Sequence record: PP925840.1
Source of the DNA: Escherichia phage SholemSchwarzbard
Length of the DNA stretch: 64,000 nt
Strand: one strand, 5' to 3'
The notes under the pieces are model-generated. The model saw nothing but the letters and a program-made list of their open reading frames with translations, made no database searches and was not told where the DNA came from. Every line of letters starts with the position of its first letter. Position 1 is the first letter of the stretch. The translations under genes and the position numbers were made by a program. This document shows, piece after piece, positions 33,513 through 38,389 of the stretch.

Positions 33513-34682
33513 TTAAAAATATTTTTTAAAACTCATCATAACTTTATCATCAACATCATTATCAATCTGTGCTACAAGGTAAGATGACAGTTCTACTTCT
33601 TGCGGCGCGGATTGAACATTATCAGAATTAAGGTATTCACGAATCCAAGGATATGGATGTTTAACCGGAGCATCGGTAATTGGACATGGAAGACCACACT
33701 GTTTCATACGAGATACAGTTAAGTAATCAATAAAGCTCCACATGCTATTTGTATTTAATCCAGGAACATCGCCATCTTTAAATAAATGAACTGCCCAATC
33801 TTTTTCTTGGCGGTTAACTTCCATGAAAATATCAACTGCTTCTTGTTCACACTCTTGAGCAATTTTAACCCATTCATCGCCATCAGTACCGGATTGAAGT
33901 TGACGAATAATATATTGGGTGCCTTTAAGGTGAAGCTGCTCATCACGTGCAATGAACTTCATAATCTTGGCATTACCTTCCATGATTTCCATGTTCTTAT
34001 GGAAGTTAAAGGTACATGCGAAAGATACATAAAAACGAATAGCTTCCAATGCGTTGATTACATGCAGGCAGAGGTAAAGAGATTTCATTAGTGCTCGTTT
34101 AGTACATTCAACAACTTTGCCTAACTCTTCTTTACGAAATCCTTCTGATAAAATTCCTTCATAATCTTCAACCGCATTCTGATATTCACGAGTCTTAACT
34201 AGAACGTCATCATAATAACGACCAATAGATTCAGCGCGTTTCATGATAGCTTTATCTAATACAATCTCATCAAATACCTTTGATGGATCAGTATAAAGAT
34301 TTCGCATAATATGAGTATATGAACGGCTGTGAATAGTTTCGCTAAAAGTCCATGTAGCAACCCATGTATCAAGACTTGGGTCTGAAATTAACGACATAAG
34401 TACAGCAGACGGCGCACGACCCTGAATGCTATCCAAAAGTGATTGATACTTCAGGTTATTAGTAAAAATATCTTGCTGATATTGAGGAAGCTTGTTAAAT
34501 TGTGCAGCATCCATCATCAAGTTTACTTCTTCAGGACGCCAGAAAAATGACAATTGCTTTTCGGTTAAATCTTCAAAAACTTTATGGCGTTGAATATCAT
34601 AACGTGCAATACCAAGACCTGAACCGAAGAACATAGGTTCTTTTAAAACATCAACTGGATTTGTATTAAAAACTGTGCTCAT
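33513..34682 (-). CDS. nrdB: Ribonucleotide reductase small subunit NrdB (uninterrupted)
   Basis: 389 aa continuous ORF; di-iron and tyrosyl radical family features. Confidence 0.92.
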   Translation of the reverse strand: MSTVFNTNPVDVLKEPMFFGSGLGIARYDIQRHKVFEDLTEKQLSFFWRPEEVNLMMDAAQFNKLPQYQQDIFTNNLKYQSLLDSIQGRAPSAVLMSLISDPSLDTWVATWTFSETIHSRSYTHIMRNLYTDPSKVFDEIVLDKAIMKRAESIGRYYDDVLVKTREYQNAVEDYEGILSEGFRKEELGKVVECTKRALMKSLYLCLHVINALEAIRFYVSFACTFNFHKNMEIMEGNAKIMKFIARDEQLHLKGTQYIIRQLQSGTDGDEWVKIAQECEQEAVDIFMEVNRQEKDWAVHLFKDGDVPGLNTNSMWSFIDYLTVSRMKQCGLPCPITDAPVKHPYPWIREYLNSDNVQSAPQEVELSSYLVAQIDNDVDDKVMMSFKKYF

Positions 34683-34733
34683 AAATTTTCCGCTTAGTTA
34701 ATAGATAGTGACTCGTCCGTGAGTCAAATTATA

Positions 34734-36998
34734 TCATAATTTACAGGATGAACAATCTTCAGCTTTTGGAGTTTCTATTTCATAATCATCAGTACCAGAA
34801 CCGTCACGGGTATTATGATAATAGAAATTTTTTCCGCCAAAATACCAAAAATATAAAAGGTCATCAATCATTATTGACATTGGAACCTTTCCTTTTGGAA
34901 AAATCTGCGGGTCATAATATGTATTCGCTGAAGCTGATTGACATACCCATTTCAGCATAATAGCTACTTGCGTAAGATAAGGTTTATTACCTTTCTTAGC
35001 TAATTTCCACGTATAATCATAGAGGTCTATGTTATGCTCAATATTGGGCACGACTTGATTAAAGGAACCCTCTTTTGATTCTTTAACAGAGACTGGTCCA
35101 CGTGGAGGCTCGATACCGTTTGTACTGTTAGAAACTTGGGAAGATGACTCACATGGCATAAGTGCTGATAATGTGCTATTACGGATGCCAAAGAGCTTAA
35201 GGTCTTCCCGCAGCGACGACCAGTCACAAACGTATTTTGGAGCTGCGATTTGGTCGATCTTTTTATTGTACCAGTCGATAGGTAATTCGCCTCGAGACCA
35301 ACGAGTGTCTGAATAATATTCGCAAGGTCCTTTTTCTTTGGCGAGCTTAATGGATGCTTTAATGAGTCCATACTGTAATCTCTCAAATAGTTCATGTGTT
35401 AAATCGTTAGCATCTTCATAAGAAGCAAAATTACTTGCCAGCCAAGCTGCATAGTTAGTAACACCTACACCGAGATTTCGACGCTTTTTAGCTTTTTCTG
35501 CTTCAGGAACTGGATATCCTTGGTAGTCCAAAAGATTATCAAGAGCACGAACTTGGACTTCTGCCAATTCATTAATTTTATCTTGGTCTTGCCAATCGAA
35601 GTTATCTAACACAAATGCAGATAACGTACACAATCCAATTTCAGCATCAGGACTATTCACATCATTTGTTGGAATAGCAATTTCACAACACAAGTTACTC
35701 TGACGAATAGGTGCCTTTTCACGAATAAACGGAGTATAGTTATTCGTATTATCTATGAACTGTACATAAATCCTTGCTGTTCCTGAGCGTTCAGTCATGA
35801 GCAATTCAAACAGTTCACGGGCTTTAATACGCTTTTTACGAATATTAGGGTCTTTTTCTGCGGCTTCGTATAATTCACGGAAACGGTCTTGGTCTTTAAA
35901 ATAAGAATAATAAAGTTCGCCACCCATTTCATGTGGACTGAACAAAGTAATGTAATCGTTCTTTCCGAATCGTTCCATCATCAAATCATTCAGCTGAACG
36001 CCATAATCCATATGACGAATGCGGTTTTCTTCTACGCCTTTGTTATTTTTCAAAACGAGAAGATTTTCAACTTCCAAATGCCAAATAGGATAATAAGCAG
36101 TAGCAGCGCCGCCACGAATTCCACCCTGTGAGCATGATTTAACAGCAGTCTGAAAATGTTTCCAAAAAGGAATAACACCAGTATGGCGTACTTCACCCAT
36201 GCCAATCTTAGAACCTTCGGCACGAATCATACCAACGTTAATACCAATTCCAGCACGTTTGGAGATATATTCAACAATTGAAGCGGAAGCCTTATTGATA
36301 GACTTTAATGAATCACCTGCCTCAATAACAACGCATGAACTAAACTGTCGAGTCGGAGTACGGCAACCAGCCATAATAGGAGTTGGCAATGAAATCTGTC
36401 GAGTAGATACTGCTTCATAAAAACGGATAACATGTTTTAGTCTATCAACAGGTTCATCTTGATGCAATGCCATTCCAATAGTCATAAATGCAAACTGTGG
36501 AGTTTCATAAATTTGACCGGTGGTTTTATCTTTAACTAGATATTTTTCTTTTAATTGCATCGCCCCGGAATAAGTAAATTCCATATCCCGCTCGTGCTTA
36601 ATTTTTGATTCTAAAAATGTAATTTCTTCTACTGAATATTTTGACAATAATTCAGGGTCGTATTTACCTTCATTTACGCAATAAGAAATATGGTCAATAA
36701 ATGAACGTGGTTCATATTGTCCGTAAACATGCTTACGAAGAGCGAACATTAAACAACGTGCAGCTACATATTGATAATCAGGCTCTTCAACCGAAATAGA
36801 ATTCGCAGCAGCCTTAATGACAATAGTCTGAATATCATCAGTTGTCATTCCATCACGGAGATAAGATTTAATATTTTCATATAATTCATAAGGATCTACT
36901 GATGTTCCTTCAGCTGCCCAAGATAAAACTTTAATAATTTTTTGTGGGTCAAAGCTCTGAGAAACACCACTACTTTTGATAACATTAATTAATTGCAT
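34734..36998 (-). CDS. nrdA: Ribonucleotide reductase large subunit NrdA
   Basis: 754 aa, same length as T4 NrdA; ATP-cone N-terminus; C-terminal Cys pair. Confidence 0.95.
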   Translation of the reverse strand: MQLINVIKSSGVSQSFDPQKIIKVLSWAAEGTSVDPYELYENIKSYLRDGMTTDDIQTIVIKAAANSISVEEPDYQYVAARCLMFALRKHVYGQYEPRSFIDHISYCVNEGKYDPELLSKYSVEEITFLESKIKHERDMEFTYSGAMQLKEKYLVKDKTTGQIYETPQFAFMTIGMALHQDEPVDRLKHVIRFYEAVSTRQISLPTPIMAGCRTPTRQFSSCVVIEAGDSLKSINKASASIVEYISKRAGIGINVGMIRAEGSKIGMGEVRHTGVIPFWKHFQTAVKSCSQGGIRGGAATAYYPIWHLEVENLLVLKNNKGVEENRIRHMDYGVQLNDLMMERFGKNDYITLFSPHEMGGELYYSYFKDQDRFRELYEAAEKDPNIRKKRIKARELFELLMTERSGTARIYVQFIDNTNNYTPFIREKAPIRQSNLCCEIAIPTNDVNSPDAEIGLCTLSAFVLDNFDWQDQDKINELAEVQVRALDNLLDYQGYPVPEAEKAKKRRNLGVGVTNYAAWLASNFASYEDANDLTHELFERLQYGLIKASIKLAKEKGPCEYYSDTRWSRGELPIDWYNKKIDQIAAPKYVCDWSSLREDLKLFGIRNSTLSALMPCESSSQVSNSTNGIEPPRGPVSVKESKEGSFNQVVPNIEHNIDLYDYTWKLAKKGNKPYLTQVAIMLKWVCQSASANTYYDPQIFPKGKVPMSIMIDDLLYFWYFGGKNFYYHNTRDGSGTDDYEIETPKAEDCSSCKL

Positions 36999-37315
36999 AA
37001 GTCCTCAACTTGAAAATCGTCTTTAAACAATCGGTTAACTATATGAGCTATTATATCACCATGACACGGCTTTGGTTTACATGTGCATCCTAGCCTCATT
37101 CCACGTAAAGGCTCTAAATGTGCTTTAGTTATTTCTCCGGATTTAATTCGACGTATAAAATCTTTTTTGAATAATTCAATGGCAGCCTCCCGGCTGCCAG
37201 CATCTTTACCGACGTAATTTCCCCAAAATGTACCACGGTGAATATTAACATCAAAGTCGGATTTATATTTATTCACTACCTGGCATAGACGGCCCGCGCG
37301 GTAATAATTCGTCAT
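36989..37315 (-). CDS. Hypothetical protein (nrdA.1-like)
   Basis: 108-aa ORF. Confidence 0.55.
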
Positions 37316-37532
37316 ATTGTTGTTCCGTTAAAACAGTAATATCATAATAACAATCAGAAGAAGTTTTAACTGTAGAAATTTTATTATCAAAATACTCACG
37401 AGTCATTTTATGAGTATAATATTTTTTGCCATAAATGATAATAGGCTGTTCTGGTCCTGGAACTTCTAACTCGCTTGGATTAGGAAGTGTAAAAAGAACG
37501 ACACCAGAAGTATCCTTAAATCGTAAAATCAT
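37269..37532 (-). CDS. Hypothetical protein (nrdA.2-like)
   Basis: 87-aa ORF. Confidence 0.5.
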
Positions 37533-38389
37533 ATTGCCATTTTCCCTTTAATTGCTGGATGCGATTCATAATTTTCAAGGATAAAATCTTTCGGTTTCAT
37601 GTATTCAGTTAACCAGTAAAGCTGTGTTTCGGTGTCACAATTTCCAAACTCTATAGGCCAATCAATTTTAAGTTCACATAGTTCTTTAGGCTCACGACGT
37701 AAAATTTCTTTACATTGCTCAGTATGATTCATATAGATGTGAGTATTACCACCAGAAAATATCAAATCTCCTGGGATAAGATTACACATCTTAGCCACAA
37801 TATGCGTCAAGGCAGCGTACGAGGCAATGTTGAATGGCAATCCCAAGAAAACATCTACACTTCTTTGGTACCATTGTAAATCAAGATAACCATTACGCAC
37901 ATTAAACTGATAGAACATATGACAGGGCGGTAATGCCATTTGATTGATTTCAGCTGGATTCCATGCTGAAACGATTTGACGTCGATCAGTTGGTAATTTT
38001 TTAATACGATCAATAGTTTCAACTAATTGATCCACACCACCGAAATCACGCCACTGTTTTCCATAAATTGGACCAAGTTCACCACTATGATATCCTAGGT
38101 CTTTAGCTTGGTTTTCATAATTGTCATCCCAGATAGTTTTACCTTGAATAAGACTACCATGAGTACGAAGACGTAAATCATTAACATTGGTAGAACCGGA
38201 AATAAACCATAGAAGCTCAGCAATACATGCGTTCCAGGCGAGCTTTTTAGTTGTTACTGCAGGAAAACCTTTGGTTAAATCCCATCGTAATTTAGTACCG
38301 AACAAAGCAATTGTTCCTGTGCCCGTTCGGTCATCGGTTTCATAGCCATTTTCAAAAATGTCTTTAATTAAATCTTGGTATTGTTTCAT
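37529..38389 (-). CDS. td: Thymidylate synthase (uninterrupted)
   Basis: 286 aa continuous; ThyA motifs including catalytic Cys (LPPCH). Confidence 0.95.

Follow-up and report, generated by a model that had tools for sequence, protein, structure and literature searches.

The stretch of DNA analysed here, 64,000 nucleotides (nt) of Escherichia phage SholemSchwarzbard (PP925840.1; hereafter the window), is Tequatrovirus DNA and includes a gene block that encodes thymidylate synthase (td) and class Ia ribonucleotide reductase (nrdA and nrdB) from uninterrupted genes. In phage T4, the same locus holds three insertions: a group I intron in td that carries the homing endonuclease I-TevI, a second intron in nrdB with a remnant of I-TevIII, and a segment with mobE between nrdA and nrdB. 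Comparison with T4, T2 and further relatives indicates that the region is very probably an ordinary T2-type frd-td-nrdA-nrdB-denA block in which all three of these sites are unoccupied; what would happen to the sites in a mixed infection with T4 is something that we infer from this comparison.

The three T4 insertions are absent from the nrd/td block

The core of the block comprises four features, delimited by the open reading frame (ORF) list and identified by their Pfam matches (aa, amino acids):

33513-34682, minus strand: nrdB, 389 aa, uninterrupted; Pfam Ribonuc_red_sm
34683-34733, minus strand: empty nrdA-nrdB spacer, 51 bp
34734-36998, minus strand: nrdA, 754 aa, uninterrupted and of the same length as T4 nrdA; Pfam Ribonuc_red_lgC/lgN/ATP-cone
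37529-38389, minus strand: td, 286 aa (861 nt), uninterrupted; Pfam Thymidylat_synt

The annotated T4 locus (NC_000866) was aligned to the window, and the T4 splice junctions were placed from the sequence. The host genes of T4 and the window are homologous, their insertion sites lie at the same positions, and the nrd/td region is 80-96% identical between them. Three T4 segments are missing from the window in this alignment: 138458-139057 (the nrdB intron, 598 nt, including what remains of I-TevIII), 139720-140419 (700 bp with mobE and nrdB.1) and 143544-144564 (the td intron of ~1017 nt with I-TevI). The T4 td junction, at which exon 1 ends in CTTGGGT and exon 2 starts with CTACCG, corresponds to an empty insertion site between positions 37841 and 37840 (td nt 549|550), where the window is collinear with the spliced T4 td. 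Likewise, the T4 nrdB junction, at which exon 1 ends in TTTTGCGT and exon 2 starts with GTACC, corresponds to an empty site between 34016 and 34015, again collinear with the spliced T4 exons. An initial annotation, made by a model from the sequence alone, had described nrdB and td as continuous ORFs, had placed nrdB and nrdA only 51 bp apart, and had named the three T4 insertions that it took to be lacking here; the ORF list and the alignment with T4 bear out all of these statements.

The absence of introns was also examined at the level of structured RNA. A scan of the window at the Rfam gathering threshold returned 0 matches, but the same setting misses both T4 introns (cutoff 50) and is uninformative, so negatives of this kind cannot exclude phage group I introns. 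In E-value mode, Rfam detects both T4 introns as Intron_gpI, with 40.3 and 35.7 bits, and finds no match to Intron_gpI up to E=1 in positions 33000-39500 of the window. Since the T4 control is positive under these conditions, the absence of introns from the window is real.

The uninterrupted block is of the T2 type and represents the majority state

Phage T2 (AP018813, 133.3-139.7 kb) matches the window gene for gene in the order frd-td-nrdA-nrdB-denA. Its td (286 aa) and nrdB are intron-less like those of the window, and its nrdA-nrdB spacer is also 51 bp long, with 49 of the 51 positions identical to the window (2 mismatches). T2 also has the 115-aa ORF that sits between frd and td in the window, two genes that overlap in T4. 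The alleles themselves are not the same in every part of the block. T2 nrdB encodes 392 aa compared with 389 aa in the window and is 91.9% identical to it overall, differing in a hypervariable segment at nt ~480-620. The window td is ~80% identical to both T4 td and T2 td (80.5% for T2), whereas the T2 and T4 genes are 95.8% identical to each other, which marks the window td as a distinct allele lineage.

Closer relatives are available in the database. Phages teqdroes, RB18, slur03/07/08/14, KRT47 and Sf25 are 96-98% identical to the window over 6.5 kb and, with the exception of Sf25, align with it as a single collinear stretch with the same uninterrupted genes and point differences only; identity of 96-98% and single collinear alignments hold with dozens of independent isolates. 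It is therefore vanishingly improbable that the empty sites are an artefact, produced by an assembly collapse or by sequencing of a laboratory T4 derivative with deleted introns. The agreement with so many independent isolates tells against such an origin, as do the intact ORFs of normal length and an identity to T4 of 80-96% instead of about 100%. Nothing specific speaks in its favour, although assemblies of relatives do hold artefact-like duplications, as seen in Sf25.

In the record of Sf25, the closest relative, the annotated nrdA reaches 837 aa because of tandem duplications, 252 bp inside nrdA and 179 bp at nrdA.1 (record positions 4502-5002 and 5767-6123), that probably arose in assembly. 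An apparent 427-bp insertion in this phage was considered as a mobile element and rejected, as it consists of these two duplications of nrdA/nrdA.1 sequence.

The frequency of the uninterrupted state was assessed in a phage collection of 50,697 records. The td gene was uninterrupted in 462 of 671 td matches, the junction at the nrdB insertion site in 559 of 688 matches, and a T2-type empty nrdA-nrdB junction was present in 373 of 494 matches. The T4 td intron was found at a coverage of at least 80% in about 197 records and the T4 nrdB intron, at the same coverage, in about 118, while the full T4-type mobE plus nrdB.1 occurred in 20 records. Judged by these comparisons, the block is the ordinary T2-type version of a T-even locus, and its uninterrupted state is the majority condition, long known, to which T4 is the exception. 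Nor is the intron-minus, endonuclease-free allele of the initial annotation a special one, given these counts and a layout identical to that of T2. The finding restates a textbook fact about T-even phages, namely that T2-like members lack the introns and free-standing homing endonucleases of T4. This lack underlies the marker exclusion seen when T4 is crossed with T2, which has classically served as the recipient (PMC2988022).

At nrdB, MobE and not I-TevIII is the predicted agent of conversion

Two regions of nrdB bear on its predicted fate in a mixed infection:

34523-34586, minus strand: MobE target region of nrdB (nt 97-160); nick at nt 122-126 = 34557-34561; conserved Trp codon (FFWRPEEV)
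33986-34043, minus strand: equivalent of the I-TevIII (RB3-type) homing site (-28..+30); cut positions -14/-16 at about 34029-34031

The initial annotation had predicted that T4 would cleave and convert the window at all three sites, with I-TevIII acting at nrdB and the nrdA-nrdB spacer counted among the homing sites. Such conversion is plausible at td, through I-TevI, and in the mobE region, but not through cleavage at the nrdB insertion site. I-TevIII of T4 is inactivated by a deletion, and the enzyme is active in RB3 only (PMC1865063; PMC2988022, Table 1); the T4 annotation also labels it as a defective DNA endonuclease with a deletion in its proximal half. With no functional I-TevIII, T4 is unable to cut at the nrdB insertion site. 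Its nrdB intron is inherited only by MobE-dependent trans homing, in which repair co-converts mobE and the nrdB intron, and the MobE-dependent nick has been mapped to nt 122-126 of T2 nrdB instead of to the spacer (PMC2790892). The mechanism to be considered for the nrdB intron is thus trans homing by MobE.

The MobE target region of the window has 1 mismatch to T2 in 64 nt (nt 129, G>A, synonymous), compared with 18 to T4. With this T2-like sequence at the nick region, the window carries a T2-type MobE target that is predicted to be susceptible. Phages T4 and slur02, which bear mobE, have a different variant of the nrdB 5' region from that of the window, in agreement with the published work (PMC2790892). 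Upon co-infection with T4, MobE would be expected to nick the T2-like target at nt 122-126, and repair would copy in mobE, which would thereby be inherited preferentially; co-conversion of about 540 nt downstream would often introduce the nrdB intron with its dead I-TevIII as well, whereas the T4 I-TevIII itself would contribute no cleavage.

Alignment with the T4 exon junctions, which the initial annotation had proposed as a check on the integrity of the homing sites, gave different answers for the two genes: the nrdB site is near-identical to that of T4, while the td site has diverged (see below). Only two positions of the nrdB site depart from the T4 exon junction, namely -5 (T>C) and -2 (G>A, a change also present in T2); the stretches -28 to -6 and +1 to +30 are unchanged. 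I-TevIII cuts at -14/-16 (PMC1865063), and these positions fall within the stretch identical to T4. Across the gene, the exon-2 part is 97.8% and the exon-1 part 82% identical to T4. Database matches to the nrdB intron that span about 1088 bp, compared with 598 bp in T4, suggest that longer nrdB introns, equipped with an HNH/endonuclease ORF, occur commonly among other phages; the endonucleases of these longer introns could plausibly target the nrdB site of the window.

The exon-1 part of nrdB also contains the hypervariable, indel-rich segment mentioned above (~34063-34203), with marked differences among T4, T2, slur02 and the window and an identity to T4 of 48-56% in 50-nt bins. This segment may represent a freely varying surface loop or a recombination boundary.

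The 51-bp spacer includes the ribosome-binding site of nrdB. It also contains a perfect 6-bp inverted repeat, TGACTC-N6-GAGTCA, at 34709-34726 (minus strand), with one loop change in the T2 copy. The resulting hairpin is classed as terminator-like by a simple scan, although a proper run of T is missing; phages without mobE have been reported to possess no terminator in the nrdA-nrdB spacer (PMC2790892).

The td site retains the I-TevI cleavage motif despite its divergence

The region of td corresponding to the I-TevI homing site was delimited as follows:

37830-37868, minus strand: equivalent of the I-TevI homing site (-28..+11, 39 bp); motif CAAAG at 37863-37867 (CAACG in T4)

This site has 11 mismatches to T4 in 39 positions (-28, -24, -22, -21, -20, -19, -1, +1, +3, +6 and +9), all of them silent, so that the protein across the site is identical to that of T4. 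The CNNNG cleavage motif is present at -27..-23 of the insertion site, and C-27 and G-23, the critical positions of the motif (PMC5009752, PMC2988022), are both retained. In phage T2, a good recipient, 6 positions of the same 39-bp site are unlike T4, and the ~20-bp primary binding region has 5 mismatches to T4; I-TevI tolerates sequence changes. In a co-infection with T4, I-TevI would be predicted to cut the window td at the retained CNNNG, at -23/-25 relative to the insertion site, and the intron would enter when the break is repaired with the T4 copy as template. The efficiency of this process is uncertain because the site, its flanks and the optional upstream ORF differ from T4.

Several observations weigh against efficient conversion of the window by T4. 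Many CNNNG substrates escape I-TevI cleavage (PMC5009752), one of the differences from T4 (-24) falls inside the cleavage motif, and our search of the accessible literature found no published data on the activity of I-TevI on CAAAG. The ~20-bp primary binding region, centred on the insertion site, is mismatched to T4 at -1, +1, +3, +6, +9 and +12. Moreover, identity of the td flanks to T4 is 84% for exon 1 and about 70% for exon 2, and a T4 donor might be used less readily in repair because of this divergence and of the additional 115-aa ORF upstream. Flank homology and optional flanking genes reportedly determine how efficient homing is in T-even phages (work of Sandegren & Sjoberg, JBC 2004). 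At nrdB, the single difference from T2 in the MobE target is found at a distance of 3 nt from the nick positions.

The 3' end of td (37529-37670, nt ~720-861) constitutes a mosaic boundary that is about 40-70% identical to T4 and T2 and includes two 3-nt indels; phage ESh24 has a third variant of this segment.

Natural intron-carrying derivatives of the window-type td

In the database, 75 phages share the window-type td, with an identity of at least 99% across 81 bp that include the site. To compare exons with the window td, exon 1 was taken as nt 1-500 and exon 2 as nt 570 to the end. By this measure, phages e11/2, Lutter and Pu-Krd-SF4 have a window-type td that carries an intron, with exon 1 92-98% and exon 2 99.3-99.7% identical to the window. 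In e11/2 (exon 1, 95%; exon 2, 99.3%), T4-type bases are confined to -28 to +9, and the td intron is decayed, with a length of 445 nt and an I-TevI truncated to 55 aa. Lutter (97.8% and 99.3%) has a td intron of 1016 nt with a 245-aa I-TevI ORF and a T4-type tract from about -45 to +6. The intron of Pu-Krd-SF4 is likewise 1016 nt long with a 245-aa I-TevI ORF, and its exon 2 is of the window type (99.7%) from +4 on. Every intron-carrying td allele examined is T4-type from about -28 to -1, the interval in which the window differs.

As far as these alignments tell, the tracts of e11/2 and Lutter are the co-conversion footprint expected of a -23/-25 cut repaired from an intron-bearing donor. Since they begin near the I-TevI cut site, they indicate that the td intron has entered the window-type td in nature, on what appears to be more than one occasion. 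The two footprints provide a clean natural record of td-intron homing into a lineage that is ~20% diverged from T4.

These derivatives, the most telling evidence on the td site, also bear on the proposal that the window-type td is a partly I-TevI-refractory site, in which silent changes were selected to reduce cleavage. Such selection would explain why this lineage is mostly intron-free, the site being uninterrupted in 215 records as opposed to about 37 that match the exon-2 half only. In line with it, mismatches to T4 show a mild enrichment in the site (11/39) relative to the rest of td (106/681; Fisher p=0.045, odds ratio 2.1). An Arg codon (CGC>AGA) and a Ser codon (TCA>AGT) at the cleavage site together account for five of the 11 (-24 and -22 to -19), a sixth lies just upstream in a Tyr codon (-28), and many CNNNG variants are poor substrates of I-TevI (PMC5009752). 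However, this p-value is borderline, and a single Ser codon switch accounts for three of the mismatches. The required C-27 and G-23, which cannot change silently, have both been kept, and T2, an efficient recipient, also departs from T4 at six positions of the site. Above all, at least three intron-carrying derivatives exist, and the tracts of e11/2 and Lutter point to cutting of this site in nature. On balance we regard a partly refractory site as quite unlikely. That an arms race with the td intron drove the selection of the Arg/Ser codon-family switches and of the six silent changes in the binding region appears very unlikely.

The same footprints bear on the history of the empty sites. The introns, mobE or both might have been present in an ancestor of the phage and then removed by precise loss, as part of a cycle of gain, decay and loss. 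A cyclical model of homing endonucleases has been discussed (PMC2988022), and decayed elements do occur in relatives, as illustrated by the shortened intron of e11/2 and by the T4 I-TevIII, a deletion derivative. Precise excision, however, would leave the T4-type footprint from -28 to -1, which is absent from the window, and the 51-bp spacer, nearly identical to that of T2, contains no mobE remnant. Loss by recombination with an intron-less allele would be indistinguishable from a locus that had never been invaded. Secondary loss is, in our assessment, unlikely, and an ordinary T2-type block with unoccupied sites remains the preferred reading.

Neighbouring genes and the remainder of the window

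The remaining features of the block and its borders are the following:

33075-33509: denA, GIY-YIG EndoII (Pfam)
36989-37532, minus strand: nrdA.1 (108 aa, DUF4326) and nrdA.2 (87 aa, DUF5496), as in T4 and T2
38435-38782, minus strand: ORF of 115 aa between frd and td; phrog_1928, unknown function, no Pfam match

Further neighbours identified by Pfam are frd (DHFR) and rnlA. The only nuclease gene near the nrd/td block is denA, which is a conserved T-even gene and not a homing endonuclease. The 115-aa ORF, an optional flanking gene that lacks any nuclease domain, is common to T2, teqdroes, Sf25, ESh24 and Lutter.

The 64-kb window corresponds to T4 105,345-168,903, and every homing-endonuclease insertion that T4 carries in this interval is missing across the whole window, in keeping with a review that describes T4 as the outlier, most T-even genomes having few endonuclease insertions (PMC2988022). 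Besides the insertions of the nrd/td block, the absence extends to three seg genes, whose places are taken by short junctions:

1178-1237: segD absent; junction between genes 23 and 24, 60 bp
6294-6312: segE absent; junction between inh and uvsW, 19 bp
42133-42167: segG absent; junction next to gene 32, 35 bp

The third T4 intron locus, nrdD with I-TevII, is not in the part of the genome covered by the window. In addition to the ORF upstream of td, the window has ORFs that T4 does not possess:

39383-39972, minus strand: ORFs of 81 aa (phrog_3183) and 110 aa (DUF7247) between frd and frd.1
30145-30465, minus strand: ORF of 106 aa (phrog_2364) between pseT and pseT.1

The 115-, 81-, 110- and 106-aa ORFs were considered as cryptic endonucleases and rejected, as they have no nuclease domains and match only PHROGs of unknown function and DUF7247. 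Finally, positions 16748-20076 and 51724-54670 show little or rearranged similarity to T4. These regions correspond to the alt / alt.-1..-3 area and to the C-terminus of the distal tail-fibre gene 37 together with gene 38, and they are the expected host-range mosaic.

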